From an uncultured Draconibacterium sp. (GTDB lineage Bacteria > Bacteroidota > Bacteroidia > Bacteroidales > Prolixibacteraceae), in contig NZ_CAXXWU010000003.1 of the NCBI RefSeq assembly GCF_963675585.2, positions 529,087-593,086 on the forward strand: a stretch of 64,000 nucleotides of DNA. The letters run 5' to 3'. Shown piece after piece: positions 18,801 to 40,659 of this stretch. Numbering within the stretch: the stretch's first letter is position 1; each line of letters begins with the position of its first letter. A program made the translations under genes and the position numbers. Under the pieces are notes generated by a model, which ran no database searches, was not told the DNA's origin, and worked only from the letters and a program-made list of their open reading frames with translations.

Positions 18801-21800
18801 AAACAAGCGATGCGGGCGGAGCAAACTCAACCACGGTTGTTCAGGATTACGTTGCACTAAATTCAACCATGACATTTGTTGCCGGATCATCCAACACCTC
18901 GCATTCGTTTGATGTAACCATAAACAACGGAGTAATTGCCGAACCAACTGAAACGTATTTTATCGATTTATCGGCTTTGGTAAAAGTTGGCGATGCCAAT
19001 ATTACCTTCTTCGACGGTCACGCTGTTGGAACAATCACCGACAACGACGAAGTAAAAATAACGCTTCATGCCTTTGCCGATGTTACCGAAACGGATGCAG
19101 CTCAAACTGCAAACTTCTATGTAAGTCAGGACATTGCTTCTCAATATCCGATTACACTGCTCTTCTCTTCGCAGGCACAAACCATTGTTTCGGCGGTATC
19201 AACAGGCGACTTTAGCGCTCAAACCGATGTAACAGTAACGCTTCCTGCCGGATCAACTTCAAATGTGAATGTGGCGGCAACAACCATTGCAGGCGACAAC
19301 ATTTCGGAACAAAGCGAAACATTTGAAGGAATACTTGTTTTCGCTGATAAAAAGGCCCAGCTGGCTTCATTTACATCAGGTGGAGACACTGCCGTTGCAA
19401 CCATTCTCGACGACGACATCATTCAGTTGACACTCGAAGACAAAACAGTTACAGAAACCGACGGAACACAATCGATCAACTACATTCTTTCTTCCGACAT
19501 TGCAGCCGAAGAAGACTTTGTACTGAGCTTTGGAACTTCAGACAATACCGCGGTTGACGGCAACGATTTTACCGACCAGGACAATACAACAATTACATTC
19601 CTGCACGGAACAACTTCGTTAAATATTCCGGTGGATGTACTGGGCGACGATGTAACCGAACCTACCGAAACATTTACAGGAACTGTTACCATGACCAATG
19701 CAAATGGTCAGCAATATAATTTTGTACAATCAACGGCTACTTACACCATCGAAGACGATGATCCGGCTGTAATCTCGTTAAGCGAATTTACGTACAACGA
19801 ATCGCAGGTTGGAACCGATCTGGCACAATTTACAATTACACTGAGCAAAAATGTTCAGAATGAATTTACAGTTGATTTTACCACTTCAGACATTGCCGGT
19901 GAAGCCCTTGACGGAGCCGATTACACCGCTGTAGCGTTAACAGATGCAACAGCACTAAAATTTGGCGCTTCGAACGATTTGGTACAATACGTTACCGTAG
20001 CAATTAACAACGACAGCTGGGTTGAGCCTACCGAAACGTTGCTGGGAACATTAAGTAACCTTCAATCGCTTTTGCAAGCTGTAACTTTTAGCAACAGCGA
20101 AAGTACTTTGGCTGTTACAAGCACAATTAACGACAACGATGCAGCCACAGTGGCAATCGACAGTGTTGCCCTTGACGAAGACGAAGGACCTGCCGTATTT
20201 ACGGTTACACTTACCGGAGACATTCAGGATGAACTAACAGTTGATTTTGCAACAACAGATGGAACTGCCGTTCAAGTGAACGACTACATTTACCAGAATG
20301 GTACTGTAACTTTCCCTGCAACTTCGCTTTCAGGAACCACACAAACTATTTCGGTTGTTCTTGTTAACGATGCCATTTCGGAACCACTAACCGAAACTTT
20401 CAGGGTTGAACTGGACAACATCGTTTCAACCGGTTCGGCCAGCATGAACGACGATACAGGTTTGTGTACCATTACCGATGAAGATCCGGTGACCCAGATT
20501 AACCTGACCGGCTTTACAGAGTCGGAACTGGATGCTGATCAGAATTACAATTTCCTTGCAAAAATGGATAAAGTGGCGCAAGAGCCAATTACCATTAGTT
20601 TTACAACAACCCAGGGAACGGCAGAACACGGTACTGACTTTACTGCACAGTCTTCTGTAATTTATACCATTCTTCCAGGAACCGACAGTGTTAATATTCC
20701 AGTTACTGTTATTGCCGACAACACCTGCGAACCTCAGGAAAGTTTTACAGGAACAATTACACTGGTTGAAGCAAACGGACAGATTGTTAGCATCGGTACC
20801 GATGTTGCAACCGGAACCATTAATGATGATGATCCTGCAATTATTTCAATCAGCGGATTTGATGTAAATGAAAATGCCGGAACAGCTGATTTTACAGTTG
20901 AAATTAGTACCGATGTTCAGGAAGATGTTACCGTAATTTTTGAAACTGCAGATAACAGTGCAGTAAACGGAGCAGGTTTGGATTATACCGAAGTATTGCC
21001 AACCACGCTTACCTTTGGTCCATCTAACGACTTGTCACAAACTGTTTCAGTAACAATAAACGACGATACATATCTTGAACCAACCGAACAACTCACCGGC
21101 CACATCAGAAACTTAAGTGCAGCCAGCCAGTCGGTAACATTAGACGGAGGCGGCGCAACTGCCGAAGCCAACGGAATTATTCAGGACAACGACGCGGCAG
21201 AACTTACTGTTTCTGACCAAACAATTACCGAAGGTGGCACAGCCCAGTTTACGGTCGAGTTAAGCGCCAACGTTCAGGGTAGTTTTACTATTGATTATAC
21301 AACAAATGATGTTTCGGCTCTATCGGCTTCCGACTACACTGCCCAAACAAATACACTGACCTTTAACGGCAATGCCGGCGAATCGTACACCATCAATGTG
21401 CCAACTACCGACAACAGCATTTCAGAACCGGAAGAAACGTTCGAACTGAATTTCTCTGACATTTCGAATGCCTTGGTAACATACGATGCACAAGCCATTG
21501 GTACCATTGAAGATAACGACGCAGCAGTGGTTAGCTTAAGCGGATTCTCTGTTACCGAAACAGATGTAAACCAGCTTAAAAACTTTACGGTTAACATGAC
21601 CAAAGAAGCACAGGAAGATGTGGTTCTTAGTTTTACAATCACTCCGAATTCGGCAGTGGCAACTGGTGATTACATAATTTTTGCAACTTCGGTAACTATT
21701 CCACACGGATCGACTTCGGTAACGGTGCCGATTACAATTGTTGGCGATTTAGTTGCCGAACCAACCGAAGATTTTGCCGCAACCCTGGCAATAACCAACA

Positions 21801-24800
21801 ACGGTGCTCAGGATATTTCGGAAGGAACAGTTGAGCAAACCATTACCATTACCGATAACGATGCGGCCACCCTGGCAATTAACAGCCCGGCTGCTCAAAT
21901 TGAAGGCAATGAAATTGATTTTACCGTTACCTTAACAGGTACTGTTCAAAACGATTTCACCATTCAATACGAAACTGAAAACAATACGGCTGATGCACCT
22001 GGCGATTACACCGCCAAATCAGTTGTAACGCTGACTTTCGGTGGTGAAAACGAAAATGTTCAAACAGCCACAATTCAAACCAGCCTTGATACTGAAATTG
22101 AACCGGCCGAAACATTCTTTGTAAATCTTCTGAACTTAACTACCAACGGTCAGAATGTATCAACTACCAATATTCAGGGTACAGGTACAATTACCGACGA
22201 CGACCAGGCAAGTATTGCAATCAACAATGTAACTGTTGATGAAGCTACAAGTACAATTAATTTCACAGTTACTTTAACAGGTGATGTTAAAAATGAAATT
22301 TACATTGACTATGCAACAGCAAACGGAGCTGCAATAGCAGGTTCCGACTACACAACAAAAAGTGGTCGCCTGTATTTTGGAGCTGCAAATGCAAATTCGC
22401 AAAACATAAGCGTAAGTATTCTGAACAACACCGTGGTTGAACCGGACGAAATTTTTGTGATCAACTTAAGTGGTCTTACCACAAACGGACAAGATGTAAT
22501 TGTTGCCGATGCACAGGGAGAATGTACGATTACTGATGACGATTCAGCCGAATTAACCATCAGCGACCGCACTGTAAACGAAGATGCAGGCACTGCAGTG
22601 CTTACTGTAACGCTTACCAATAATGTACAAAACGCGTTTACGGTTCAGTACAGTACGGCAGACAACACTGCCGAACAACCCGATGATTATACTGCAAAAA
22701 CAGCGCAAACATTATCATTCGGTGCAGCAAATGCCAATTCGCAAACCATTTCAATAACAATCGAAGATGATGATCTGGTTGAAGAAACTGAAAACTTATA
22801 TACCAGTTTGTCTGGGTTATCAACTAACGGACAAGCAGTAACGATAAGCGACACAACCGGTGTAATTACAATTACCGACAACGACAATGCATTGGTACGA
22901 ATTGCTGCCAACGACGGCGATGTGGACGAAACCGGAACAAACAACGGTCAGTACCGCGTAAGTTTAAGCCAGTTAAGTTCTACCGCAACAACAATTAGTT
23001 ATTCGGTTAGTGGAACAGCCGGCAGTGACTCAGATTTTACTGCGCTTAGCGGAACAATTACCATTCCGGCCAACACGGCAAGTGCAACAATTGATCTGAC
23101 CATACTTACCGATGCCATTGTTGAAGAGAACGAAACCGTAATTGTTACACTGACCGCAATTACAGCGGGCGATGCAGATATTTCGATAGACAATTCGAAT
23201 AATTCAGCAACGATTATGATTCCTGACAACGATGCGGCTGAAGTAACAATTAATAGTCCGCTTGCCGTTGCTGAAGGAAGTGACATTGAATTTACCGTAA
23301 CCTTAAACAATGCGGTTGAAGGTGGATTTACAGTTAGCTATTCTACCAACGATGGAACAGCAACCCTTGCAGATTCAGACTACACCGACAATGATAATGA
23401 GTTAACTTTTACAGGAACAATCGGTGAGACAAAAACAATTACCGTTGCAACAAACGACGATGCAATTATTGAAGCAAGCGAAACAATTACAGTTGATTTA
23501 GAAGTTATCTCTGAAACAACAGCCGATGTTATTGTTTCCGTGGCTGCAGGTTCGGGAACAGGTACGATTACCGACAACGACGAAGCGCTTCTTTCAATTG
23601 CCAATGCAAGCGATGTTGAAGAAGGTGAAGATCTGATTTTCGTTGTAACTGTTGACAAGGCAGTTCAGGGTGGTTTTAAAGTAAGTTATACTACAAACGA
23701 TGGAACAGCCAAACTTGCCGATTCGGATTACATTGATAACGACGGCGAATTAACATTTACTGGCACAGCCGGCGAAACTGATACAATTGTGCTTACTACC
23801 AGCGAAGATGTAATTGTGGAAGGTAGCGAAGGAATTTCAGTTAGCCTGGGATCAATTCGTGAAAACGGCGGAACGGTTTCTCTTTCGGCCAGCAGTACCG
23901 GAACAGGGTTAATAACCGACAACGATGCAGCTATTGTTTCAATTAACAATCCGGCAGCCATTACCGAAGGAACAGCTATTCAGTTTGACGTAACAGTTGA
24001 CAAAGCCGTTCAGGGAGGATTTACAATTGCCTATGCAAGTAATGATGGTACTGCCGTTTCAGTTGTTCCTGTTGATTTTGGAGCAGTAAACAGCTCGCTT
24101 TCATTCACCGGATCAGCAAACGAAACCCACCCTATCACCATCACAACCACTGATGATGCCTTGTTGGAATACACTGAAAACTTCACGATTGTTCTGGGAG
24201 CCATTAGTGTAACTTCTGCCGATGTAAGTGTTTCTTCAGGCAATGGAACCGGAACCGGAACAATTAATGATAACGACAATGCTTCACTTGCCATTGCCGA
24301 TGTAAGTATTACTGAAGGCGGCGATGCTGAATTCATTTTAATAGTAACGGGTGCCGTCCAGGATGGATTTACAATCGATTATCAAACGGCTGACGGAACA
24401 GCAAAAGATACCGACGGCGATTACAACAACGACAACGGTACTTTAACTTTTGTGGGTACCAACGGTGAAAAAGATACGATTACAATTTCTACTCTGGATG
24501 ACAGCTATCTGGAACTAAGCGAAACTTTCGTTCTGAACCTGAGCAACATCAGCAATACAAATATCACGTATGACAATCAGGCAAGCGCTGAAATTGCTGA
24601 TAACGATGCAGCAGAACTTACGGTTTCTGATCAAACGGTAACCGAAGGCGGCACAGCTACATTTACAGTTGTATTAAGTGCAAATGTTCAGGGAAGCTTT
24701 ACCATTAATTATGCAACTGCTGATTCTTCTGCTTTGAATGTTTCGGATTATACTGCAAATTCAGGTACATTAACATTCAACGGAAACGCAAACGAATCGT

Positions 24801-27800
24801 ATTCGATTAATGTTCCAACTACCAACAACAACATTACTGAACCGGATGAAGCATTTAAACTGCTCTTCTCATCCATTTCAAATGTTTTGGTTGGTTTCAA
24901 TTCAAAAGCCGTTGGCACAATTGAAGACAACGATGCAGCTACAGTAAGTTTAACAGGTTTCACAGTTACTGAAACCGAAGCCAACCAGGTGAAAAACTTT
25001 ACGGTTAGCATGACTAAAGTGGCGCAGGAAGATGTGGAAATTGGTTTATTAATTACGCCGAACACCGCAGTAATTACAAGCGACTATTTGGTAACAAATA
25101 CCAGCGCAACCATTTTGGCCGGTCAAAATTCAGTAACAATACCAATTACCATAGTTGGCGATGAAATTGTTGAAGGTGCTGAAGATTTTACAGCAACAAT
25201 ATCAGTTACCGAAGACAATAGTCAGGATGTAACAACCAATGTTGCAGAGCAAACAATAACAATTACCGACAACGATGCGGCTCTGCTTTCGATTAACTCT
25301 CCTGCTTCGGTTGAAGAAGGAAGCACAATTACATTCACAGTTACGCTTGATAAAGCAGTTCAGAGTGGTGTTTCTGTTACTTACTCGTTAAGCGACGGCA
25401 CTGCGGTTCAACCGGGTGATTACACCGATGCTTCGGGTACGCTTACCTTCGACGGTACTGCCGGTGAAACCGAAACGTTTACCGTAACTACCATCAACGA
25501 TGACATACTTGAACTGACCGAAACATTAACTGCTACACTGGGAACAATTTCCGGTAATGCAGGTAGTGTAAGTCTGGGTACTGCATCGGGTACAGGTACT
25601 ATTACCGATAACGACGAAGCAAGTATTTCAATTGCCGATGTTACTGTTGACGAAGACGATGGAACAGCTACATTAACCGTTACTTTGACAGGTGATGTGG
25701 AAGAAACCTTCAGTGTAAATTATGCAACGTCAAACGTTTCGGCCATTGCTGGTACTGATTATTCAGCTGCAAGCGGAACGCTTACTTTCCCTGAAAATTC
25801 AAACGACGGGGCGACGCAAACATTTACTGTTGCAATTACAAACGACGAGGTGATTGAGCAAAGCGAAGAATTAATGCTTACGCTAAGCAACATCACCGGT
25901 GGTCTGGTGACTATTGCCGATACTTTTGCTACTGTTACAATTACTGATAATGATACCGCGACAATTTCGATTGCAGGTACTACAGTGAATGAAGCAGCGG
26001 GTACGGCTACTTTCACCCTTACTTTAACCGGTACGGTGGAAGAAAACTTCACCGTTCAGTACCAGACTGCAGATAACTCGGCGGTTGCTCCGAACGATTA
26101 TACAACTGTTGCTCCTACCTCGTTAACCTTTGGTGGTGCAAACAATAACAGCCAGGATGTTACCGTAACAATTATCAACGATGAGGTGATTGAAGGTACC
26201 GAAAGCTATTATGTAAGTCTGCTCAACCTTTCTGCAAATGGTCAGAATGTATTGATTGAAGATACTACAGCTCTTGGTTCGATTACCGACAACGATGCGG
26301 CTCTGCTTTCGATTAATTCTCCTGCTTCGGTTGAAGAAGGTAATTCGATTACTTTCACCGTAACTCTTGATAAAGCGGTTCAGAGTGGTGTTTCTGTTAC
26401 TTACTCCTTAAGCGACGGCACTGCGGTTCAACCGGGTGATTACACCGATGCTTCGGGTACGCTTACCTTCGACGGTACTGCAGGTGAAACCGAAACATTT
26501 ACCATAACTACCATAAACGATGACATACTTGAACTTACCGAAACATTAACTGCTACACTGGGAACAATTTCCGGTAATGCAGGTAGTGTAAGCCTTGGAA
26601 CTGCATCGGGTACAGGTACGATTACCGATAACGACGATGCAAGTATTTCAATTGCCGATGTTACTGTGGATGAAGACGACGGAACAGCTACATTAACCGT
26701 TACTTTGGCGGGTGATGTGGAAGAAACCTTCAGCGTAAATTATGCAACGTCAAACGTTTCTGCCATTGCAGGTACCGATTATTCAGCTACCAGCGGAACA
26801 CTTACTTTCCCTGTAAACTCGAACGACGGGGCGACGCAAACATTTACTGTTGCCATTACAAACGACGAGGTGATCGAGCAAAGCGAAGAATTAATGCTTA
26901 CGCTAAGCAACATCACAGGTGGTCTGGTGACTATTGCCGATACTTTTGCTACTGTTACAATTACTGATAACGATACCGCGACAATCTCGATTGCAGGTAC
27001 TACAGTAAATGAAGCAGCGGGTACGGCTACTTTCACGCTTACTTTAATCGGTACAGTGGAAGAAGAATTTACAGTTCAGTACCAGACTGCAGATAACTCG
27101 GCTGTTGCTCCGAACGATTACACAACTGTTGCGCCAACTTCGTTAAGCTTTGGTGGTGCAAACAACAACAGCCAGGATGTTACCGTAACAATTATCAACG
27201 ACGAGGTGATTGAAGGTACCGAAAGCTATTACATAAGTCTGCTCAACCTTTCTGCAAATGGTCAGAATGTATTGATTGAAGATACCACAGCTCTTGGTTC
27301 AATTACCGACAACGACGCGGCTCTGCTTTCGATTAATTCTCCTGCTTCGGTTGAAGAAGGTAACTCCATTACTTTCACCGTTACGCTTGATAAAGCAGTT
27401 CAGAGTGGTGTTTCTGTGACTTACTCATTAAGCGACGGCACTGCGGTTCAACCGGGTGATTACACCGATGCTTCGGGTACGCTTACCTTCGACGGTACTG
27501 CAGGTGAAACAGAAACATTTACCGTAACTACCATAAACGATGACATACTTGAACTTACCGAAACATTGACTGCTACACTGGGTACAATTTCCGGTAATGC
27601 AGGTAGTGTAAGTCTGGGTACTGCATCGGGTACAGGTACGATTACCGATAACGACGAAGCAAGTATTTCAATTGCCGATGTTACTGTGGATGAAGACGAT
27701 GGTACAGCTACATTAACCGTTACTTTGACAGGTGATGTGGAAGAAACCTTCAGTGTAAATTATGCAACGTCAAACGTTTCGGCCATTGCAGGTGCTGATT

Positions 27801-30800
27801 ATTCAGCTGCAAGCGGAACACTTACTTTCCCTGTAAACTCGAACGACGGGGCGACGCAAACATTTACTGTTGCCATTACAAACGACGAGGTGATCGAGCA
27901 AAGCGAAGAATTAATGCTTACGCTAAGCAACATCACAGGTGGTCTGGTGACTATTGCCGATACTTTTGCTACTGTTACAATTACTGATAACGATACCGCG
28001 ACAATCTCGATTGCAGGTACTACAGTAAATGAAGCAGCAGGTACGGCTACTTTCACCCTTACTTTAACAGGTACAGTGGAAGAAAACTTCACGGTTCAAT
28101 ACCAGACTGCAGATAACTCGGCGGTTGCTCCGAACGATTACACAACTGTTGCGCCAACTTCGTTAACCTTTGGTGGTGCAAACAACAACAGCCAGGATGT
28201 TACCGTAACAATTATCAACGACGAGGTGATTGAAGGTACCGAAAGCTATTACATAAGTCTGCTCAACCTTTCTGCAAATGGTCAGAATGTATTGATTGAA
28301 GATACCACAGCTCTTGGTTCAATTACCGACAACGATGCGGCTCTGCTTTCGATTAATTCTCCTGCTTCGGTGGAAGAAGGTAATTCGATTACTTTCACCG
28401 TAACTCTTGATAAAGCGGTTCAGAGTGGTGTTTCTGTTACTTACTCGTTAAGCGACGGCACTGCGGTTCAACCGGGTGATTACACCGATGCTTCGGGTAC
28501 GCTTACCTTCGATGGTACTACAGGTGAAACCGAAACATTTACCGTAACTACCATAAACGATGACATACTTGAACTTACCGAAACATTAACTGCTACACTG
28601 GGTACAATTTCCGGTAATGCGGGTAGTGTAAGTCTGGGTACTGCATCGGGTACAGGTACGATTACCGATAACGACGAAGCAAGTATTTCAATTGCCGATG
28701 TTACTGTTGATGAAGACGACGGTACAGCTACATTAACCGTTACTTTGGCGGGTGATGTGGAAGAAACCTTCAGTGTAAATTATGCAACGTCAAACGTTTC
28801 GGCCATTGCAGGTGCTGATTACTCAGCTGCAAGCGGAACGCTTACTTTCCCTGTAAATTCAAACGACGGGGCGACGCAAACATTTACTGTTGCCATTACA
28901 AACGACGAGGTGATTGAGCAAAGCGAAGAATTATTGCTCACGCTAAGCAACATCACCGGTGGCCTGGTGACTATTGCAGATACTTTTGCTACTGTTACAA
29001 TTAATGATAATGATACCGCGACAATTTCAATCAATTCACCATTAAGTGTTACAGAAGGAAACAATGTAACCTTTACGGTTACTGTTGACAAAGCAGTACA
29101 AGGTGGATTTACCGTAAATTATGGAACAGTAAACGGAACGGCAACAACGGCAGGATCTGATTATACGGCTAACAGTAATTCAATTGACTTCTCTGGCACT
29201 GCCGGCGAAACAAAAACGATTACCGTTCTTACCAATAATGATGAAATTGTGGAGAGTACCGAGAACTTTAGTGTTTCTCTGAATTCGGTGTCCAATCATG
29301 TTGGCGAGGTTACTATTTCTGAGTCAAATGGACAAGGAACTGCTACCCTACTCGACAATGACAATGCTACCATCACCATCGCAAATGTTAGTGGTGCCGA
29401 AAATGGAGGCGACATAACGCTAACGCTTGTTCTTGACAAAGCGGTTGCTGAAGCATTCACGGTAGACGTAAATACTTCTGATGGTACGGCTGATGCCGCG
29501 GATTACACTGACATTGTAGATGAAACAGTTCATTTTGCTGGTACTGCACAAGATTCTCAGACTGTAACTTTCACTCCGGTTAATGATGACATTCTCGAAT
29601 ACGATGAAACTGTATTAGTTGCCTTATCTAACTTATCCACTGCTTTGGCTGTCGATATTTCCGATAATGCAATAATTACAATTACAAATGATGATTCAGC
29701 AGAATTGACAATCAATGATCAGTCCGCAACCGAAGGCGAAAATGTGAGTTTCACTTTAGAATTGACCAACGATGTACAGGAAGATGTTGTAGTTGATGTA
29801 ACATTTGCAAATGGAACTACCGAAACCGGTGATTTTACAAACACAACTCAGTCTGTTACATTTGCCGGAGGAACAAAAGGAACCAAAACCATTAACGTTC
29901 CAACAAATGCGGATACCTTCCTTGAAACAGATGAAACTTTCACTGCAAGTATTAATGTAACATCCGGAAATTCGGCCATCGATGATTCGGATACCGGTAT
30001 CGGAACAATTATCGATAACGACAGTGCGAATGTTACCATTACAGATGCAGCAGTGGATGAAGGATCAAATCTGATCTTCTACCTGACTTTATCAAACAAT
30101 GTGGAAGGTGATGTTTCAATCGATGTATCATTCGAAAATACAACAACATCGGATAACGACTTTGATGCAACAACACAAACAATAACGTTTGCAGGTGGTG
30201 CCGCGGGAACTAAAACAGTAACAGTTCCAACCTCTGACGATAACACGGTGGAACCCGATGAAACGTTATTAGCTCGTCTGGCACTCGTTTCCGGAAATAT
30301 CGAAATAAATACAGCTGATACTGCTATTGGTACTATTCGTAACGAAGATGTTTCGGAAGTAAGCATCGTGGCAACTACGCAGGCCGGTGAGCCTTCTTCG
30401 GATGGATTGTTTACACTGACGCTTTCGAATCCGGTGAGCACAGCTACACTGGTGACTTTTGCCATCTCGGGTACTGCCACCGAAGGAACTGACTTTGCTA
30501 CAATCGGTACAACTGTGACCATTCCGGCGGACAGCACAAGTGCTACACTGGATGTAACTGTAATTGATGATAACATTGTTGAAACAGGTGGCGAGACTGT
30601 TCTGGCTGCCCTGCTTTCTACAAATACTGCAGTGACTGTTGCAACAGCGGATTCGGCTACAATTACAATTGCCGATGAAGATGTTTCGGAAGTTAGTATC
30701 GTGGCAACTACGCAGGCCGGTGAACCTTCTTCGGACGGATTGTTTACACTGACGCTTTCCAATCCGGTGAGCACAGCAACTCAGGTGACTTTTGCCATCT

Positions 30801-33800
30801 CGGGTACTGCCACCGAAGGAACTGACTTTGCTACAATCGGAACTACGGTTACCATTCCTGCAGACAGCACAAGTGCAACGCTGGATGTAACAGTAATTGA
30901 TGATAACATCGTTGAAACTGGTGGTGAAACTGTTCTGGCTGCTCTGCTTTCTACTAATACTGCAGTGACTGTTGCTTCTGCTGATTCGGCTACAATTACA
31001 ATTGCCGATGAAGATGTTTCGGAAGTAAGTATCGTGGCAACAACGCAGGCCGGTGAACCTTCTTCGGATGGATTGTTTACACTTTCGCTTTCGAATCCGG
31101 TGAGCACGGCTACACAGGTGACTTTTGCCATCTCGGGAACTGCCACCGAAGGAACTGACTTTGCTACAATCGGTACAACTGTGACCATTCCGGCGGACAG
31201 CACAAGTGCTACACTGGATGTAACTGTAATTGATGATAACATCGTTGAAACAGGTGGCGAGACTGTTCTGGCGGCCCTGCTTTCTACAAATACTGCAGTG
31301 ACTGTTGCTTCTGCTGATTCGGCTACAATTACAATTGCCGATGAAGATGTTTCGGAAGTAAGTATCGCTGCAACTACGCAGGCCGGTGAGCCTTCTTCGG
31401 ATGGTTTGTTTACACTTTCGCTTTCGAATCCGGTGAGCACGGCTACACAGGTGACTTTTGCCATCTCGGGTACTGCAACCGAAGGAACTGACTTTGCTAC
31501 AATCGGTACAACAGTGACTATTCCTGCGGACAGCACAAGTGCTACCCTGGATGTGACTGTAATTGATGACAACATCGTTGAAACTGGTGGTGAGACTGTT
31601 CTGGCTGCCCTGCTTTCTACAAATACTGCAGTGACTGTTTCTTCTGCTGATTCGGCTACCATTACAATTACTGATGAAGATGTTTCGGAAGTAAGTATCG
31701 TTGCAACGACTCAGGCCGGTGAACCTTCTTCGGATGGATTGTTAACACTGACACTTTCGAATCCTGTGAGTATTGCTACCCAGGTGACGTTTGCCATCTC
31801 AGGTACTGCCACCGAAGGAACTGACTTTGCTACAATCGGAACTACGGTTACCATTCCTGCGGACAGCACAAGTGCAACCCTGGATGTAACAGTAATTGAT
31901 GACAACATTGTTGAAACCGGTGGCGAGACTGTTCTGGCTGCCCTACTTTCTACTAATACTGCAGTGACTGTTGCTTCTGCTGATTCGGCTACCATTACAA
32001 TTGCCGATGAAGATGTTTCGGAAGTAAGTATCGCTGCTACTACGCAGGCTGGTGAGCCTTCTTCGGATGGATTGTTTACACTGACGCTTTCGAATCCGGT
32101 GAGCACCGCTACACAGGTAACTTTTGCCATCTCGGGTACTGCAACCGAAGGAACTGACTTTGCTACAATCGGAACTACGGTTACCATTCCTGCAGACAGC
32201 ACAAGTGCAACCCTGGATGTGACTGTAATTGATGACAACATCGTTGAAACAGGTGGTGAGACTGTTCTGGCTGCCCTACTTTCTACTAATACTGCAGTGA
32301 CTGTTGCTTCTGCTGATTCGGCTACCATTACAATTGCCGATGAAGATGTTTCGGAAGTAAGTATCGCTGCAACAACACAGGCCGGTGAACCGGGTGATAA
32401 CGGATTGTTTACACTGACACTTTCGAATCCGGTGAGCACAGCAACTCAGGTGACTTTTGCCATCTCGGGTACTGCAACCGAAGGAACTGACTTTGCTACA
32501 ATCGGTACAACAGTGACTATTCCTGCGGACAGCACAAGTGCTACCCTGGATGTGACTGTAATTGATGACAACATCGTTGAAACTGGTGGTGAGACTGTTC
32601 TGGCTGCCCTGCTTTCTACAAATACTGCAGTGACTGTTTCTTCTGCTGATTCGGCTACCATTACAATTACTGATGAAGATGTTTCGGAAGTAAGTATCGT
32701 TGCAACGACTCAGGCCGGTGAACCTTCTTCGGATGGATTGTTAACACTTTCGCTTTCGAATCCTGTGAGTATTGCTACCCAGGTGACGTTTGCCATCTCA
32801 GGTACTGCCACCGAAGGAACTGACTTTGCTACAATCGGAACTACGGTTACCATTCCTGCGGACAGCACAAGTGCAACCCTGGATGTAACAGTAATTGATG
32901 ACAACATTGTTGAAACCGGTGGCGAGACTGTTCTGGCTGCCCTACTTTCTACTAATACTGCAGTGACTGTTGCTTCTGCTGATTCGGCTACCATTACAAT
33001 TACTGATGAAGATGTTTCGGAAGTAAGTATTGCTGCTACTACGCAGGCTGGTGAACCTTCTTCGGATGGATTGTTTACACTGACACTTTCGAATCCGGTG
33101 AGCACCGCTACACAGGTAACTTTTGCCATCACGGGAACTGCTACCGAAGGAACTGACTTTGCTACAATCGGAACTACGGTTACCATTCCTGCGGACAGCA
33201 CAAGTGCTACCCTGGATGTGACTGTAATTGATGACAACATCGTTGAAACAGGTGGTGAGACTGTTCTGGCTGCCCTACTTTCTACTAATACTGCAGTGAC
33301 TGTTGCTTCTGCTGATTCGGCTACCATTACAATTGCCGATGAAGATGTTTCGGAAGTAAGTATCGCTGCTACTACGCAGGCTGGTGAGCCTTCTTCGGAT
33401 GGATTGTTTACACTGACGCTTTCGAATCCGGTGAGCACCGCTACACAGGTAACTTTTGCCATCTCGGGTACTGCAACCGAAGGAACTGACTTTGCTACAA
33501 TCGGAACTACGGTTACCATTCCTGCAGACAGCACAAGTGCAACCCTGGATGTGACTGTAATTGATGACAACATCGTTGAAACAGGTGGTGAGACTGTTCT
33601 GGCTGCCCTACTTTCTACTAATACTGCAGTGACTGTTGCTTCTGCTGATTCGGCTACCATTACAATTGCCGATGAAGATGTTTCGGAAGTAAGTATCGCT
33701 GCAACAACACAGGCCGGTGAACCGGGTGATAACGGATTGTTTACACTGACACTTTCGAATCCGGTGAGCACAGCAACTCAGGTGACTTTTGCCATCTCGG

Positions 33801-36800
33801 GTACTGCAACCGAAGGAACTGACTTTGCTACAATCGGAACTACGGTTACCATTCCTGCAGACAGCACAAGTGCAACCCTGGATGTGACTGTAATTGATGA
33901 CAACATCGTTGAAACAGGTGGTGAGACTGTTCTGGCTGCCCTACTTTCTACTAATACTGCAGTGACTGTTGCTTCTGCTGATTCGGCTACCATTACAATT
34001 GCCGATGAAGATGTTTCGGAAGTAAGTATCGCTGCAACAACACAGGCCGGTGAACCGGGTGATAACGGATTGTTTACACTGACACTTTCGAATCCGGTGA
34101 GCACAGCAACTCAGGTGACTTTTGCCATCTCGGGTACTGCAACCGAAGGAACTGACTTTGCTACAATCGGAACTACGGTTACCATTCCTGCAGACAGCAC
34201 AAGTGCAACCCTGGATGTGACTGTAATTGATGACAACATCGTTGAAACAGGTGGTGAGACTGTTCTGGCTGCCCTACTTTCTACTAATACTGCAGTGACT
34301 GTTGCTTCTGCTGATTCGGCTACCATTACAATTGCCGATGAAGATGTTTCGGAAGTAAGTATCGCTGCTACTACGCAGGCTGGTGAGCCTTCTTCGGATG
34401 GATTGTTTACACTGACGCTTTCGAATCCGGTGAGCACCGCTACACAGGTAACTTTTGCCATCTCGGGTACTGCAACCGAAGGAACTGACTTTGCTACAAT
34501 CGGAACTACGGTTACCATTCCTGCAGACAGCACAAGTGCAACCCTGGATGTGACTGTAATTGATGACAACATCGTTGAAACAGGTGGTGAGACTGTTCTG
34601 GCTGCCCTACTTTCTACTAATACTGCAGTGACTGTTGCTTCTGCTGATTCGGCTACCATTACAATTGCCGATGAAGATGTTTCGGAAGTAAGTATCGCTG
34701 CAACAACACAGGCCGGTGAACCGGGTGATAACGGATTGTTTACACTGACACTTTCGAATCCGGTGAGCACAGCAACTCAGGTGACTTTTGCCATCTCGGG
34801 TACTGCAACCGAAGGAACTGACTTTGCTACAATCGGAACTACGGTTACCATTCCTGCAGACAGCACAAGTGCAACCCTGGATGTGACTGTAATTGATGAC
34901 AACATCGTTGAAACTGGTGGTGAGACTGTTCTGGCTGCCCTGCTTTCTACAAATACTGCAGTGACTGTTTCTTCTGCTGATTCGGCTACCATTACAATTA
35001 CTGATGAAGATGTTTCGGAAGTAAGTATCGTTGCAACGACTCAGGCCGGTGAACCTTCTTCGGATGGATTGTTAACACTGACACTTTCGAATCCGGTGAG
35101 CACAGCTACACAGGTGACTTTTGCCATCTCGGGAACTGCTACCGAAGGAACTGACTTTGCAACAATCGGTACTACTGTGACTATTCCTGCGGACAGCACA
35201 AGTGCTACCCTGGATGTGACTGTAATTGATGATAACATCGTGGAATCGGGTGAATCGGTAATTGCAGTATTGGATACAACTGACAATGTAGTTACAATCA
35301 GCGAGGCATATTCCGACACAGTTATCATCACGGACAACGATACTGCTTATTTAGACATTGAAGACCTGACGGTACTTGAAAGTGACAGTTTTGCAACATT
35401 CGTTGTAACGCTCAGCGGAAATGTACAGGATGCGTTTAGTATAAACTACAGAACAAAAGACAGCACAACAATTTCGGATCTTGACATTGTTAGCACAACC
35501 GGACAATTAAATTTCCCTGCCAATTCAGAGGATGGAGATTCGCTGAAAATTTATGTTCCGATAGTAAATGATGTTTTTGTTGAGCCAGGTGAAGTATTCA
35601 TCATAACATTGAGTAAAGAACAAAATGGTTTGGTTTCAATTTATGATTCTGTTGCCACAGGAACTATCCTTGACAATGACTCGGCCACCGTTACAATTTC
35701 TGACCTTTCAGTAATGGAAGCAGCCGGTGCAGCAATTGTGCAGGTTACCCTCTCCGGTTCTGTTCAAGACGAATTTACATTGAACTATTCAACAGGAGAT
35801 ATGAGTGCTTTGGCGGGTTCTGATTATAGCTCTCAATCTGCAACGTTAACCTTCCCTACCGGATCAGAAAATGGAGACATTTTAACCATCTCAATTCCGG
35901 TAATTAACGATGCAATTGTTGAAAATGATGAGCTGTTTAATCTGCAAATTTCAGATATTCAGGGTACATCACCGATGCTGTTTATCGACAGATCTACTGC
36001 AGAAGTTACTATTCTGAATGATGACCATTCTCCTGTAAGTACAAACTTTACGGTAAATGGTAACGAAGATGAAATCCTGTACCTGGGAGCCAATAATTTT
36101 GTTGCTCACTACTCCGATTTGGACAATGACAAACTTGGAAAGGTTAAGATTTTAAGTTTGCCGGGTAATGGAACATTGATGTTGAATAATACTGTTGTTT
36201 CTAAAAACCTTGAAATAAGTTTGGGTAATTTGAATCAACTAAGGTTTGTTCCTGTTCCGAACTGGAACGGCACCACTTCAATGACTTATAAAGTTTCAGA
36301 CGGCTACAACTGGAGTAACAATGTTTCAACCATTAATCTGGTTATCGATCCTGTTAACGACAAGCCGGTGGCAGTGAATGATACAATTGATATTGTTGAG
36401 GATTCTTCGATTGAAATAAATGTTCTGACAAACGACTGGGATATCGAAAATGATAAACTTATTGTAGCAGGTTTAACCATTGGTGGAGTATCATATCAAC
36501 CGGGTGACAGCATCCAGGTTACAGATACTAACTTTGATCCTGAGAATACCAATATTCAATCAGCAGGAACTTTAATTGTAACTGAAAACGGAGAATTGTA
36601 TTTCGAACTTACCGAAAATTATACTGGTAGAATTCCTGAGATTGTTTATACCATCTCTGACCAAAACGGAGGTAGTGATGATGCGATTATTTACATTGCA
36701 ATTGAAGGTGTGAATGATGCACCAATTGCCAACGATATCATATTGAAACTTTCTCCTGATTCGTTAGGAATAATAAACATACTGGAACATGTTTGGGATC

Positions 36801-38407
36801 CGGATAACGAGCCACTGAACGTAACATCCATTAAAATTGGTGCAACAATTTACAATATAGGTGACAGCATTTTGGTTCCTGTACTTGGAAAAATGATTCT
36901 TGCATTAAATGGAGATTTTACTTACGCTCTCAATTATCTGACAGGATCGATTCCTGAAATTCAGTACACGGTTTCTGACAGCCAGGGAGTATCTGCAAGT
37001 GCCCGAATAATTATCTACATCGAGAAGGATGATGACCTCAATCCTCCAAAACCACCGGCATATCCGGTTATTGTTAACGAGGATTATTCAACCTGTAATG
37101 ATGAATTAATTAGTGGAAACATAACTGTAAATGACTCCAGCTCAATCAGCAATCCGCAATTAAGCGTGAATACAACTCCTGTACAGAATGCGAAATACGG
37201 AACTTTCGGAATTGCAGAAACAGGTGACTTTACTTACCTGCCAGATATTGATTTTGCGGGAACCGATACCATTATTGTTTCGGTTTGCAACAGCGATACA
37301 CTCTGCTCGAACGATACGATTACCATTACCGTAATTCAGTCGATTGAAATTTCAGCCGGTGCAGACATAACAAGTTGCGAAAGTAATCAGGTAGCACTTT
37401 CGGGAACTACAACAGACCAAAACATAAGTCTGCTGTGGACCAGCGAAGGAGATGGTACATTTACCGATGCGACTTCATTAAATCCTGTTTATCAACCGGG
37501 AACTGCAGACATTGCAAGCGGATTTGTAACACTAACGTTGTCGGCTAATAGCAATAGCGGTTGCAGCATTGCTTCAGACGAAATGATGATAAGCTTTACA
37601 AATGGTGTTGAACTTTCGGCCGGTAGCGATATAGTTGCCTGTGCCGGTCAGGAAGTTACAGTACCTGATGCAATGGCCATAAACTATTCTGAAATTCGTT
37701 GGGAAACTACCGGCGACGGTGATTTGTTAGCTGCCAACACATTAAGTCCGGCTTATGTTCCTGCATCGACCGACAACAGTGAAGTTCAGTTAATTTTAAT
37801 TGCAAGTGGAACCGGAGAATGCAACCAGCAGGAAGTTCGCGATACTGTTTCGGTATTCTTCCAGGTATTAACAGTTGATATACTGGGCGACATTGAAGTT
37901 GAATACGGAAATTCGGTGATACTGAATGCGGCTGTTGAAAATGGAAGTGGTAATTATAATTACGAATGGACACCGGCAGAAATTTTACTTCAGACTGATG
38001 GAAGCTCCGTTGAAACCAGTGAATTATTGAACGACACCCAAATTCATGTTGCGGTTACTGATCTGCAAAGTGGTTGTATTGCCACAAGCGATGTAACAAT
38101 TACGGTAACTAAAAATTGGGATGACGAAATCAATATCCGTAATGGTATTTCTCCGAACGGCGATGGCAACAATGACATCTGGTATATTGAAGGAATTGAC
38201 GCTTTCCCTGAAAACGAAATAATTATTTACAACCGCTGGGGAGATGAAATTATAAGGATACGTTCTTACGATAATAATTTTAATTACTGGGATGGTTTGA
38301 ACCGCGACGGTAAACTTGTACCAAATGGAACATACTATTATCTGATTAAACTTACCGATGATAAATCGTACACCGGATGGGTACAAGTAAAAGCCAACAA
38401 CCATTAA
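3833..38407 (+). CDS. giant (11,524 aa) cell-surface protein: signal peptide, HYR-type repeats, Calx-beta repeats, cadherin-like repeats and a T9SS type-B (gliding motility-associated) C-terminal sorting domain
   Basis: The frame is uninterrupted for 34,575 nt, with TAA at 38405-38407. The N-terminus has a hydrophobic signal core ([21 protein letters not shown]). There are more than 30 Cys-containing modules of about 80-90 aa, with the patterns CP.N....C.A.V.W..PTA.DNC and D.G.C.Y.V.G.EFDP...DNC. There are about 10 [16 protein letters not shown].CG modules. By length/period estimate there are about 55-60 Calx-beta modules (..DY....G.L.F.......Q.I.V.I..D...E..E.F...L). Tandem modules ending in VND[KA]P[VI]A follow. 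The last ~90 aa read [37 protein letters not shown]...[10 protein letters not shown]...GWVQV, the hallmark of the CHU_C/TIGR04131-type CTD. Confidence 0.95.
   Translation: [11524 protein letters not shown]
4550..13370 (+). other. HYR-type (hyalin repeat-like) module array within the giant protein (aa ~240-3180)
   Basis: The block has a periodic ~80-90-aa pattern with conserved Cys pairs. It also has recurring 'DNC' and 'W(T/R)A.D..GN' motifs and inter-module linkers of the form V.D...P.I. One LDASG-type module is embedded near 6640-6900. Boundaries are approximate. Confidence 0.7.
13370..15340 (+). other. block of 8 consecutive ~78-85-aa 'C....[IV].LD[AG][ST]GN[AT][ST]I[TS]...[IV]DNGS[SF]D.CG......F.C...G...V.L.V.D..GN...C...V.V.D...P' modules
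   Basis: I read the modules directly from the translation. A ninth copy lies at about 15650-15900 and a tenth at about 6640-6900. I cannot name the family with confidence. Confidence 0.6.
25261..29010 (+). repeat. in-frame tandem repeat, 1020-bp unit (340 aa = 3 Calx-beta modules), about 3.7 copies
   Basis: The motif '(a/g)attaccgacaacga(t/c)gcggctctgctttcgattaa(c/t)tctcctgcttcgg' recurs at 25261, 26281, 27301 and 28321, exactly 1020 nt apart. Units differ by scattered, mostly synonymous substitutions. The fourth unit loses similarity near 29010 ([13 protein letters not shown] versus [14 protein letters not shown]). Confidence 0.9.
30344..35338 (+). repeat. in-frame tandem repeat, 333-bp unit (111 aa = 1 Calx-beta module), 15 copies, near-identical with higher-order structure
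   Basis: 'gaagatgtttcggaagt' recurs at 30344 and every 333 nt up to 35006. The 15 units translate to EDVSEVSI[VA]ATTQAGEP[SSD/GDN]GL[FL]TL[TS]LSNPVS[TI]AT[QL]VTFAI[ST][57 protein letters not shown][AS][ST]ADSATITI[AT]D. The last unit diverges after [11 protein letters not shown]. Confidence 0.95.
36025..37060 (+). other. cadherin-like / tandem Ig-like modules with 'DPVNDKPVA' and 'GVNDAPIA' linkers
   Basis: Three modules of about 100-110 aa run from [16 protein letters not shown] to IIIYIEKDD. They contain acidic 'ND.D.END' motifs and VND.P.A junctions typical of bacterial cadherin-like repeats. The family assignment is from memory. Confidence 0.5.
38125..38404 (+). other. T9SS type-B C-terminal sorting domain (gliding motility-associated CTD)
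   Basis: The sequence is [91 protein letters not shown]. The 'SPNGDG.ND.W.I.G', 'I.NRWG..[VI]' and 'G.YYY' motifs are the recognisable signature. Confidence 0.9.
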
Positions 38408-38418
38408 AAGTAGGTATT

Positions 38419-39384
38419 ATGAAAAAAGAGAAAAGTAAATACATCCAATTCAGACATACATTATTTATGAAAAAGTCAATCATTTTTCATCTGTTATTAT
38501 TTGCCAGTTTAATTGTTTTTGCACAGCAAGATCCCCTGTTCTCGCAATACACCTACAATAAGCTGTTGGTTAACCCGGGTTATGCCGGAAGTCGCGAAAA
38601 CCTGAACGTTACTCTGGTAAATCGTGCCCAGTGGGTGAGCATTGAAGGGGCACCAAATACCCTGACATTGAGTGCGCATGCCGCCGGAAAAAATAAAAAA
38701 GTAGGCCTCGGCTTTTACCTCAACCGTGATGTGTTGGGGCCTACTGTAAATAACATTTTTATGGCGAACTATTCGTACCGGATTTTAATGAATGAAAGCT
38801 TTTTTGCCTTTGGTTTGCAGGGCGGAATCACCTATTTTGATTTTGATTATGCGGCCATGAATTTAAGAGATGCCGATTACATGTTCGATCCGACCAACAT
38901 CCGAAAAGTTACACCCGATGTAAATGTGGGTGTTTATTACCAATCGAAGCAGTTTTTTGCCGGTTTAAGTTCCAAGCATCTTCTGGAAAACGATTACGGT
39001 TTTATTCTTCAGGATGACAAAACAACTTTTAACCGTCTTGCCCGTCACTTTTATTTTATGACCGGAGGCGTTTGGGAGTTTGCCGAAAACTTGTATCTGC
39101 GACCTTCTACCCTGGTAAAATTTGTACGAAACGCTCCGGTTCAAATTGATTTGAATGCGAGTGTCATGTTCAAAAAAGCATTTATGCTTGGGGCATCTTT
39201 CCGAACCGAAAAAGCCATGTCGATAATGGCTGAACTGGCCATAACCAGTGGAATTCGTTTGGGTTACTCTTATGATATTTATTTTAACGAGCTACAGTTA
39301 TACAACTATGGATCGAACGAAATCAGGCTCGAATTTGATATTAATGTATTTGAGCCACGAATGGTAACTCCACGCTTCTTTTAA
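38419..39384 (+). CDS. PorP/SprF-family type IX secretion system membrane protein (cognate partner of the upstream type-B CTD cargo)
   Basis: The hallmark N-terminus after the signal peptide is AQQDPLFSQYTYNKLLVNPGYAGS. The protein is about 305-321 aa and has a beta-barrel-like C-terminus ending in F. The ATG at 38419 lies 11 nt after the giant gene's stop. The ATG at 38467 (MKKSIIFHLLLFASLIVFAQQ) gives a more canonical signal peptide and may be the true start. The ORF-track start at 38377 overlaps the giant gene and is unlikely. Confidence 0.9.
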   Translation: MKKEKSKYIQFRHTLFMKKSIIFHLLLFASLIVFAQQDPLFSQYTYNKLLVNPGYAGSRENLNVTLVNRAQWVSIEGAPNTLTLSAHAAGKNKKVGLGFYLNRDVLGPTVNNIFMANYSYRILMNESFFAFGLQGGITYFDFDYAAMNLRDADYMFDPTNIRKVTPDVNVGVYYQSKQFFAGLSSKHLLENDYGFILQDDKTTFNRLARHFYFMTGGVWEFAENLYLRPSTLVKFVRNAPVQIDLNASVMFKKAFMLGASFRTEKAMSIMAELAITSGIRLGYSYDIYFNELQLYNYGSNEIRLEFDINVFEPRMVTPRFF

Positions 39385-39402
39385 TACTTTATCTTTACAA
39401 CA

Positions 39403-40659
39403 ATGAAAAAAATACTAATATCTGTTTTGGTTCTGACCTTTCTTTCGCTCACGTATTTTGCCAGTGCGCAGATGAAATCGGCCAATAAACTGTATTCTCA
39501 ACTGAAATATTATCGGGCAATCCCGTATTTTACAAAAGTTGTTGAGGGGAAAAATGATTCGGACAAAAAAGAAGCAACCTGGAAATTGGCTGAATGTTAC
39601 CGACGTACCAACAATCCCAAAGAAGCTGCCCTTTGGTTTGAACAGGCAGTCAATTTCAAAGATGTTCCGGCTGAAGTGTTTCTGAACTATGGGAATGTAC
39701 TCCGGAATTTGGGACGCTACAACGATGCAATTCAACAATTTGAAAGTTACCTTTCGTTTAAACCGGAAGCCAAAGAAGGAACTGCCTACCTGGAATTTAG
39801 CCGCCAGATTGAATCGTGGAAAAACCTTGAACCATCGGCAGTAATTGAAAATGATTCAGCGCTTAATTCGCGTTTTTCTGATTTTTCGCCGGTTTATTAC
39901 AAACAAGGCCTGGTTTTTATTTCCGATCGCGATTACGATATGCTGGATAATAACAACTATTTCTGGACCGGGAATGGATACCTGAATTTGTATTTCAGAG
40001 AAACGGAAACAAGTGTTCCAACAAAAATGTCGAACGAATTTAACCAGGCTTACCACGACGGACCGGTTTGTTTTTCAAACAACGAATCTCAGATTTTTAC
40101 CACCCGAACTTTAAAAACAAAGTGGAAAAGAAAAGACACCATACAAACGCATTATACAGGCATTTATAGTGCACAACTGAATGTTGGGAAACTTGCCTTT
40201 AACTCTTTTGAATACAACAACCTCGCATATTCGGTGGCACACCCTGCCGTTTCTGAAGATGGAAAACTCATGATCTTCTCTTCAGATATGCCCGGAGGAC
40301 AAGGCAAAAGCGATTTGTATTTTTCAGAATTGGTTGACGGAAAATGGTCGGAGCCTAAAAATTTGGGAACTAAAATCAATACTTTCGGGAATGAGTATTT
40401 TCCGTTTCTGGCCAATGGCACAACTTTGTATTTTGCATCGAACGGACACATGGGTTACGGTGGGCTCGATTTGTATAAATCGGAATTTAAAAACGGAGAA
40501 TGGCAGGAACCCGAGAATTTGAAAGCACCCATAAATTCGTCGTACGACGATTTTGGAATTTTACTAAACAAAGACCTTACCAGTGGCCGTTTTAGTTCAA
40601 ATCGCCCCGGTGGTTTAGGCGACGACGACATATACAAATTCAGTGAACTAAAAAAGTAA
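39403..40659 (+). CDS. TPR + TolB-like (PD40 beta-propeller repeat) periplasmic/outer-membrane-associated protein; resembles the N-terminal two-thirds of the OmpA-family proteins that usually follow porP/sprF-like genes, but has no OmpA C-terminal domain
   Basis: It has a signal peptide (MKKILISVLVLTFLSLTYFASAQ) and TPR-like helices (Y..A...F...V, AECYRRTNNPKEAALWFEQA, GRYNDAIQQFESYL). PD40-like repeats are FSPVYYKQGLVFISDR, HPAVSEDGKLMIFSSDMPGGQGKSDLYFSE, FPFLANGTTLYFASNGHMGYGGLDLYKSE and FSSNRPGGLGDDDIYKF. It starts 18 nt after the sprF-like gene. Confidence 0.75.
   Translation: MKKILISVLVLTFLSLTYFASAQMKSANKLYSQLKYYRAIPYFTKVVEGKNDSDKKEATWKLAECYRRTNNPKEAALWFEQAVNFKDVPAEVFLNYGNVLRNLGRYNDAIQQFESYLSFKPEAKEGTAYLEFSRQIESWKNLEPSAVIENDSALNSRFSDFSPVYYKQGLVFISDRDYDMLDNNNYFWTGNGYLNLYFRETETSVPTKMSNEFNQAYHDGPVCFSNNESQIFTTRTLKTKWKRKDTIQTHYTGIYSAQLNVGKLAFNSFEYNNLAYSVAHPAVSEDGKLMIFSSDMPGGQGKSDLYFSELVDGKWSEPKNLGTKINTFGNEYFPFLANGTTLYFASNGHMGYGGLDLYKSEFKNGEWQEPENLKAPINSSYDDFGILLNKDLTSGRFSSNRPGGLGDDDIYKFSELKK

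Follow-up and report, generated by a model that had tools for sequence, protein, structure and literature searches.

A 15-unit Calx-beta array in a giant putative type IX secretion cargo gene of an uncultured Draconibacterium: mostly silent variants shuffled between units at apparently constant copy number

Introduction

Periscope Proteins, for instance SasG, Rib, Sgo_0707 and CdrA, are anchored single-chain proteins made of tandem, similar beta-sandwich domains with short linkers (Whelan et al. 2021, PMC8201768; reviewed in PMC9704523). Their repeats recombine, and repeat number "changes drastically even between similar strains" (PMC8201768); in the original survey, 84 of the 180 groups with highly identical repeats varied in repeat number (PMC9704523). 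In this study we focus on a tandem array of 333-bp units, each encoding one 111-amino-acid (aa) Calx-beta module, located in a giant gene of an uncultured Draconibacterium sp. (Bacteroidota, Prolixibacteraceae). The stretch analysed, hereafter the window, comprises 64,000 nucleotides (nt) of contig NZ_CAXXWU010000003.1 (assembly GCF_963675585.2, positions 529,087 to 593,086 of the forward strand). A first-pass annotation of this DNA, made from the letters alone, had proposed a recent and probably ongoing repeat expansion, with a copy number likely to be polymorphic that would tune the length of a surface stalk, a model that is essentially the Periscope Protein concept. We find instead old units that exchange mostly silent variants and whose number, 15, is the same in each of three strains.

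A giant repetitive cargo is also known from a type IX secretion system (T9SS), that of Flavobacterium johnsoniae, where the gene for SprB lies in an operon of the order sprC-sprD-sprB-sprF. Type-B cargo of the T9SS stays attached to the cell surface through a cognate PorP-like protein and PorE, the set described in Porphyromonas gingivalis being PG1035-PorP-PorE (PMC9143113). The Calx-beta fold, for its part, is known from the two domains CBD1 and CBD2 of NCX1 and CALX (Protein Data Bank entries 3US9, 3RB5, 3RB7 and 2DPK), which are arranged head to tail and carry acidic clusters at the linker-side end of the domain.

The locus studied here is composed of these known parts, a T9SS type-B secretion and anchoring set and the Calx-beta fold, both of which are standard, and is not a new kind of system. 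As in the SprB-SprF and PG1035-PorP-PorE systems, a C-terminal domain (CTD) of type B is followed by a PorP/SprF gene and then by a PorE-like gene, and the cargo is giant and repetitive as SprB is. It differs in lacking sprC/sprD-like upstream genes, in place of which stand genes for a DUF819 protein and a hypothetical protein, and in a PorE-like protein without the OmpA-like C-terminal part; moreover, a gliding role is not indicated for the giant protein. With CBD1-CBD2 the modules share the fold, the head-to-tail arrangement and the acidic clusters at the linker-side end, but sequence identity is 14-28%, and here 15 to about 52 modules follow each other in a bacterial, presumably extracellular protein, as opposed to two. 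The Periscope Protein layout is present, and so is recombination between repeats; unlike members of that class, however, the array has a lower DNA identity with many silent differences, belongs to an environmental Bacteroidota host, combines a Calx-beta repeat with a T9SS type-B CTD anchor, and accounts for only some 14% of a multi-domain fibril that is much larger. Above all, the number variation that defines the class was not found, since all three strains carry 15 units.

Results

Organisation of the array

The 17-mer GAAGATGTTTCGGAAGT occurs 15 times on the + strand, from 30344 to 35006, at a spacing of exactly 333 nt (0.01 occurrences expected by chance), and Tandem Repeats Finder (TRF) returned a single array at 30344-35252 with a period of 333, 14.7 copies, 92% matches and zero indels. 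This bears out the recurrence noted in the first-pass annotation, as well as its assignment of one Calx-beta module to each unit: the units are in frame with the open reading frame (ORF) that contains them (Table 1), and a single unit scores 35.6 bits against Pfam PF03160 (cut-off 27). A profile derived from the units recovers 15 consecutive full-length modules at 164-209 bits; the edges of the array are sharp, because the adjoining modules score below 15 bits on this profile, and the 333 nt preceding unit 1 are only 37.5% identical to it.

Pairwise, units 1-14 differ by 0-40 positions per 333 nt, which corresponds to a DNA identity of 88.0-100% with a mean of 92.8%, and their protein sequences are 92.8-100% identical. 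The description of the units as near-identical therefore stands for the protein but is too generous for the DNA, all the more so for the terminal unit 15, which differs from the others at 82-94 nt (72-75% identity) owing to the divergence of its last third, where 69 of 111 nt are different. We count 12 variable amino-acid positions in the units, where about 8 had been reported; the states that sort the units into types (SIV or SIA; SSDGLF, GDNGLF or SSDGLL; VASAD or VSSAD; ITIAD or ITITD) and the resulting order AAAB, DBC, DBBC, C, BC, D had been read correctly. Units 6, 10 and 13 are identical to each other, as are units 11 and 12. Identical tracts above 600 bp had been announced and do exist, at slightly different coordinates: the longest exact repeat measures 707 bp and recurs three units downstream (Table 1). 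The segments 33341-34006 and 34340-35005, believed to show no difference, in fact differ at 6 sites, all of them between units 11 and 14, while units 10 and 13 are the same.

On the antisense (minus) strand the array contains five ORFs, 219-353 aa long (window 30079-34770). They are assumed here to be stop-free reverse frames of the repeat and not genes.

Silent variation and exchange between units

Exact protein matches bear the name uncultured Draconibacterium sp. An exact look-up, made with the PorP/SprF protein and with a cluster variant, yielded two further assemblies of the species, namely strain L001 (with L026; ENA ERZ21831251, contig of 6.12 Mb) and strain L002 (with L025; ERZ21831104, contig of 1.56 Mb). 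The sample thus comprises three strains, the window included, all represented by metagenome contigs, and 45 units in total. No relative emerged when GTDB species genomes were scanned with the PorP/SprF protein, and scans of metagenome contigs with this protein and with the exact 23-nt unit-start motif gave no matches.

Among units 1-14 of the window 65 sites vary, and 52 of these are third-codon positions. The mean synonymous divergence (dS) is 0.25 and the mean non-synonymous divergence (dN) 0.021, a ratio of 0.08. The same mostly silent pattern is seen in L001 and L002, with dN/dS at 0.07-0.08 in all three strains, and every unit retains an open frame in each of them. The units are old copies in which purifying selection preserves a single protein sequence. 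We also considered a mechanism of diversity generation or antigenic variation and rejected it, since the variants are silent in the great majority and amino-acid replacements are both few and conservative.

In the matrix of variable sites, a few segment haplotypes appear in differing combinations. In unit 7 two parents are joined: its nt 1-164 are those of unit 11 and its nt 106-333 those of unit 4, which accounts for every site of this chimera, and all 13 differences between units 7 and 11 fall within nt 165-330. The mid-unit switch that had been described for this pair is thus confirmed, as are the two 30-mers quoted for it, one being present in units 4 and 7 and the other in units 2, 6 and 10-14. 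Unit 14, likewise, is unit 11 carrying the tail of unit 4. In the four-gamete test, 339 of 903 informative site pairs fail, and at least 10 recombination events are required (Rmin 10). A 581-bp tract that runs from the end of one unit through a complete unit to the middle of the following one is present in three copies in the window array and, with the 707-bp repeat, confirms the earlier suggestion that multi-unit blocks were themselves duplicated. Exchange tracts range in size from less than 100 bp to more than 1 kb. Exchange between units, by gene conversion or unequal crossing-over as had been proposed, is real, and blocks found at shifted registers in two strains (see below) point the same way.

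Comparison of three strains

The array counts 15 units in the window, L001 and L002, and the unit starts lie at the same offset. Measured from the start codon common to all three up to the start of PorP/SprF, the gene spans 34,541 nt in the window and in L002, and 34,540 nt in L001. The predicted polymorphism of copy number is therefore not seen in this small sample, although it may occur elsewhere in the species, and the accompanying caution that the copy number of the window could be wrong is countered by the agreement of three Mb-scale contigs from separate assemblies.

Equal number is not accompanied by correspondence of the units by position. Units at the same position differ between strains by a mean of 25.1, 31.9 and 30.7 nt in the three strain pairs, and units at different positions by 23.4, 30.6 and 31.0 nt in the same pairs; positional orthology is absent (permutation P 0.83, 0.82 and 0.41), the sole exception being unit 15. 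When units 1-14 of each strain are considered, 37 of 42 are distinct, and the only unit sequence common to two strains is found at positions 11 and 12 of the window and at positions 6 and 13 of L001. No fixed difference between strains exists among the 104 variable sites. Of these, 47 are polymorphic among the units of all three strains and 29 more in two (76 in at least two); since 47 sites are polymorphic in every strain, the variants predate the divergence of the strains. The dS between units within a strain is 0.25, 0.26 and 0.37, and equals that between units of different strains, while dS by position is 0.25-0.36 across the array, several times the 0-0.12 obtained for the gene's own flanking parts and for the two genes that follow. 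The units form a shared, well-mixed allele pool across strains.

Under classic concerted evolution, units within a genome are more alike than units of different genomes. The array departs from this scheme, as within-genome homogenisation is absent and copy number appears fixed. It resembles the generally known gene-conversion models of the Ohta type for multigene families or tandem arrays, in that unit identity within a chromosome equals that between chromosomes and polymorphisms are shared with no fixed differences.

Between the window and L001, exact blocks as long as 653 bp recur with the register displaced by +1, -6, +2 and -5 units. These two strains also have in common a four-unit collinear block at a shifted register (P 0.03), which fits equally well a long shifted conversion tract or the gain of units on one side and loss on the other. 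Within L001, a near-duplicate of about 1.17 kb is found at a seven-unit offset and the longest exact repeat is 833 bp; in L002 the longest exact repeat is 140 bp and no two units differ by fewer than 17 nt. A gapped unit-level alignment of the arrays is no better than that of random unit orders (P 0.17-0.50), so the arrays cannot be reconciled by a few whole-unit insertions or deletions.

Mosaic of the window contig and assembly of related arrays

Along the window, the nearest relative changes around the array. Positions 1-29325 are identical to L002 except in a few patches, located at 4-6 kb and 12 kb; positions 35183-39491 (4,309 bp, starting inside unit 15) are identical to L001, and the intervening 29326-35182 is a third haplotype, in which the unique sequence just upstream of the array differs from both strains at the same sites. 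Mixing the L001 and L002 arrays in register would not yield the array of the window. Such a mosaic, with the array at the junction, is the pattern that a recombining population would give.

Contigs of relatives tend to break in this region. Two metagenome contigs from the Joint Genome Institute (L020 1-127 and L024 1-127), from a relative about 93% identical, begin within unit 15, at the equivalent of window position 35126, and their opening 127 nt can be matched to any of the units. Two contigs of metagenome-assembled genomes (MAGs), L003 (1-291) and L014 (46-183), likewise end inside a homologous unit array, as is the case in the two nearest GTDB genomes with the unit family, a Prolixibacteraceae MAG, whose orthologous locus has units 65% identical and a PorP/SprF protein 55% identical to those of the window, and a Tangfeifania MAG. 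As had been anticipated, the array poses a hazard for short-read assembly, with four short-read contigs from relatives ending in it.

Predicted fold of the module

An AlphaFold model of two consecutive units, computed with an alignment of the gene's own diverged Calx-beta modules, is confident and all-beta, with a predicted local distance difference test (pLDDT) of 89.3 and a predicted template modelling score (pTM) of 0.76. Its best Foldseek matches are the tandem CBD12 of NCX1/CALX (E about 1e-11), which it resembles in a head-to-tail arrangement with essentially no linker, and a single domain superimposes on CBD1 of NCX1/CALX with a TM-score of about 0.8 at 2.0-2.5 Å. The motifs GTDF, IDDNIVETGGE and IADED, invariant or nearly so across the modules of the gene, align with the acidic Ca2+-site clusters of CALX CBD1, the acidic residues concerned being D50, D75/D76, E80, E84 and D111-E-D113. 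From this model it is reasonable to suppose that the array could form a Ca2+-stiffened head-to-tail rod.

The giant gene and its neighbours

The features of the locus are listed in Table 1. In Pfam searches, the giant protein shows 15 HYR matches on its N-terminal side (14 stretches in the first 4,000 residues and one starting the next 4,000), then about 52 Calx-beta stretches, followed by Big_9 and Cadherin-like (Cadherin_5) domains and by CHU_C at the extreme end. The segment 27833-38404 alone scores 724.8 bits against PF03160 over 23 stretches, and the 333-bp array sits in the C-terminal quarter of the protein. The N-terminal third (window 3833-16400) contains, besides the 15 HYR matches, long stretches with no Pfam match, and no adhesive head domain could be recognised there by Pfam search. 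A hydrophobic, signal-peptide-like stretch, KLFVSLFVILFAFATQLNAQQ, lies at residues 41-61 of the N-terminal translation. At the other end, the TIGR04131 match covers residues 110-196 of the last 200. Taken from its sequence, the protein would be a surface-anchored T9SS type-B fibril. A protein database search with its C-terminal 1,244 aa returned only distant proteins, of at most 44% identity and at most about 2,200 aa, and no close homologue in which to count repeats.

The PorP/SprF gene, whose start overlaps the end of the giant gene, presumably encodes the cognate anchor of this cargo. The PorE-like protein encoded next corresponds to the N-terminal two thirds of the PorE model only and has no OmpA-like peptidoglycan-binding part; a look-up gave no record of this protein. 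Upstream of the giant gene, Pfam assigns genes for a hydantoinase, a hypothetical protein and a DUF819 protein; sprC/sprD-like genes are not among them, and of the SprB-type operon context the SprF-like gene alone is present. The window does not include the core T9SS genes, for which no search was made.

A second array in the same gene, built of three-module superunits, was missed by TRF, which was run with a period limit of 500. It bears the same signature as the 333-bp array: 43-52 of the 48-62 differences between superunit copies are third-codon positions.

In L001, one missing base splits the giant gene into ORFs of 3,158 and 8,365 aa, near window-equivalent position about 13.3 kb (L026 11901 onward; L001 1-10031); this frameshift could be a real pseudogene or a homopolymer error. 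The same strain carries, at L001 18220-19725, an insertion sequence element with a DDE_Tnp_1 transposase between the PGI and EamA genes, which is found in neither the window nor L002.

Table 1. Features of the giant gene, its repeat arrays and the adjoining T9SS genes, in window coordinates.
Feature	Coordinates	Strand	Description and evidence
Units 1-14 of the 333-bp array	30344..35005	+	111-aa Calx-beta module each; DNA 88-100%, protein 93-100% identity
Terminal unit 15	35006..35338	+	First two thirds array-like and joins exchange; last third diverged
Longest exact intra-array repeat, copy 1	33209..33915	+	707 bp
Longest exact intra-array repeat, copy 2	34208..34914	+	707 bp, three units downstream of copy 1
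Neighbouring array, same gene	25262..29020	+	1020-bp superunit (three Calx-beta modules) in 3.7 copies, 94-96% identity
Giant ORF, putative T9SS type-B cargo / surface fibril protein	3833..38407	+	11,524 aa; ORF list, Pfam, NCBIfam, N-terminal translation
T9SS type-B C-terminal sorting domain (CHU_C / TIGR04131)	38129..38389	+	PF13585 80.2 bits; TIGR04131 61.3 bits vs cut-off 35
PorP/SprF-family outer-membrane protein	38377..39384	+	PF11751 E 1e-70; TIGR03519 254.6 bits vs cut-off 90.55
PorE-like tetratricopeptide repeat (TPR) + PD40 protein	39403..40659	+	NF052230 positions 3-417 of 648, 241 bits, under the 600 cut-off; Pfam

Discussion

The reading that we favour, and consider probable, is that of a 15-module Calx-beta stalk whose units exchange sequence in a copy-number-neutral way under purifying selection on sequence and probably also on length. 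The array would serve as a rod-like, probably Ca2+-stiffened spacer in the C-terminal quarter of the giant protein. Homologous exchange, in register with the unit but between different unit positions, would shuffle the mostly silent variants, by gene conversion between misaligned copies within the array and possibly also with the DNA of other strains. Purifying selection would meanwhile remove amino-acid changes and leave the module protein nearly constant, at a module number that appears constant at 15. A neutral simulation of 14 units with in-register conversion and mutation reproduces the observed diversity and, like the data, lacks both fixed differences and, at the flank divergence seen, any positional signal.

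Several points weigh against this reading. The simulation fits when unit sites are overwritten roughly 100 times as frequently as they mutate, a figure that is order-of-magnitude only and depends on the flank divergence taken as baseline. Just three strains were compared, all of them metagenome assemblies, and the window contig is a three-way mosaic, a pattern that a strain-chimeric contig would likewise show. The Ca2+ binding, rod shape and surface location are predicted from homology and a model. Conversion, which we take as the likely main process, is indistinguishable in its traces from unit gain with compensating loss, or from out-of-register recombination with the DNA of other strains. 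That unit number and gene length agree across the strains suggests either that exchange is mechanistically copy-number neutral or that length changes are selected against, two options that three strains cannot separate.

Variable-length stalks of the periscope type, in which unequal recombination would vary unit number between strains or cells and tune the projection of the distal part, appear unlikely here. The ingredients are at hand: recombination between units clearly occurs, the exact repeats of 707 bp in the window and 833 bp in L001 are good recombination substrates, the shifted four-unit block of these two strains could reflect past gain and loss of units, and an anchored single chain of tandem, highly similar folded domains fits the layout of the class (PMC8201768). 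Yet the outcome is missing, as unit number is the same in all three strains and gene length is the same within 1 nt; mean DNA identity is just 92.8%, the longest exact repeat of L002 is no more than 140 bp, and high identity alone is not predictive of variation, the survey cited above having found it in 84 of 180 such groups (PMC9704523). That the array arose or grew lately from one or a few units, so that its differences would be new mutations, is scarcely credible. Some units are indeed identical (6, 10 and 13, or 11 and 12, in the window; 6 and 13 in L001), but a recent duplication burst is ruled out by a dS of 0.25 against a dN of 0.021 among units, and the first-pass view of a recent, probably ongoing expansion is not supported: unit dS (0.25-0.37) exceeds the between-strain dS of the flanks (0-0.12), the units of L002 all differ by at least 17 nt, the polymorphisms common to the three strains are older than the strains, and another Prolixibacteraceae MAG has the same unit family, at 65% identity, at the orthologous locus.

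The unit order, and possibly the unit number, could alternatively stem from a collapsed array, a strain-chimeric path or consensus mixing, in which case the shuffling would not be biological. The short-read contigs of relatives that end in the array (L003, L014, L020 and L024) and the switch of the nearest relative of the window across it speak for such an artefact, and the contigs were compared as assembled sequence. We nevertheless hold it to be improbable: three separate assemblies, with contigs of up to 6.1 Mb, agree on unit number and gene length, where random mis-assembly of a repeat should vary the number; all units have an open frame, with dN/dS at 0.07-0.08 in each strain; the window array cannot be obtained by mixing the other two in register; and a 5-kb array is shorter than typical long reads, from which the contigs may stem if their names, similar to those given by a long-read assembler, are a guide.

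An extension of the favoured reading, which we regard as quite unlikely, is that the stalk acts as a molecular ruler. Selection would then keep the number of its modules at exactly 15 and the length of the 34.5-kb gene unchanged, and silent differences would be favoured because they break identical tracts and suppress length-changing recombination. If this were true, the window and L001, with identical tracts of 700-830 bp, would be transient unstable states and L002, with 140 bp, a stabilised one; the strategy would be opposite to that of Periscope Proteins, and the silent differences would not be mere drift.

With copy-number-neutral exchange under purifying selection as the probable account, the population-genetic behaviour of the array is instructive, not surprising. 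Highly similar tandem surface domains are usually read as variable-length stalks, but here recombination clearly acts on the repeats while neither module number nor protein sequence changes across three strains, and the locus illustrates that repeat identity alone should not count as evidence of length variation. The 45 units from three strains constitute a clean natural data set, which could serve to estimate, for an uncultured member of the Bacteroidota, how fast conversion proceeds compared with mutation and how long its tracts are. Moreover, short-read assemblies of these bacteria break at such arrays, with the consequence that giant T9SS surface proteins will be under-counted or truncated in MAG catalogues.

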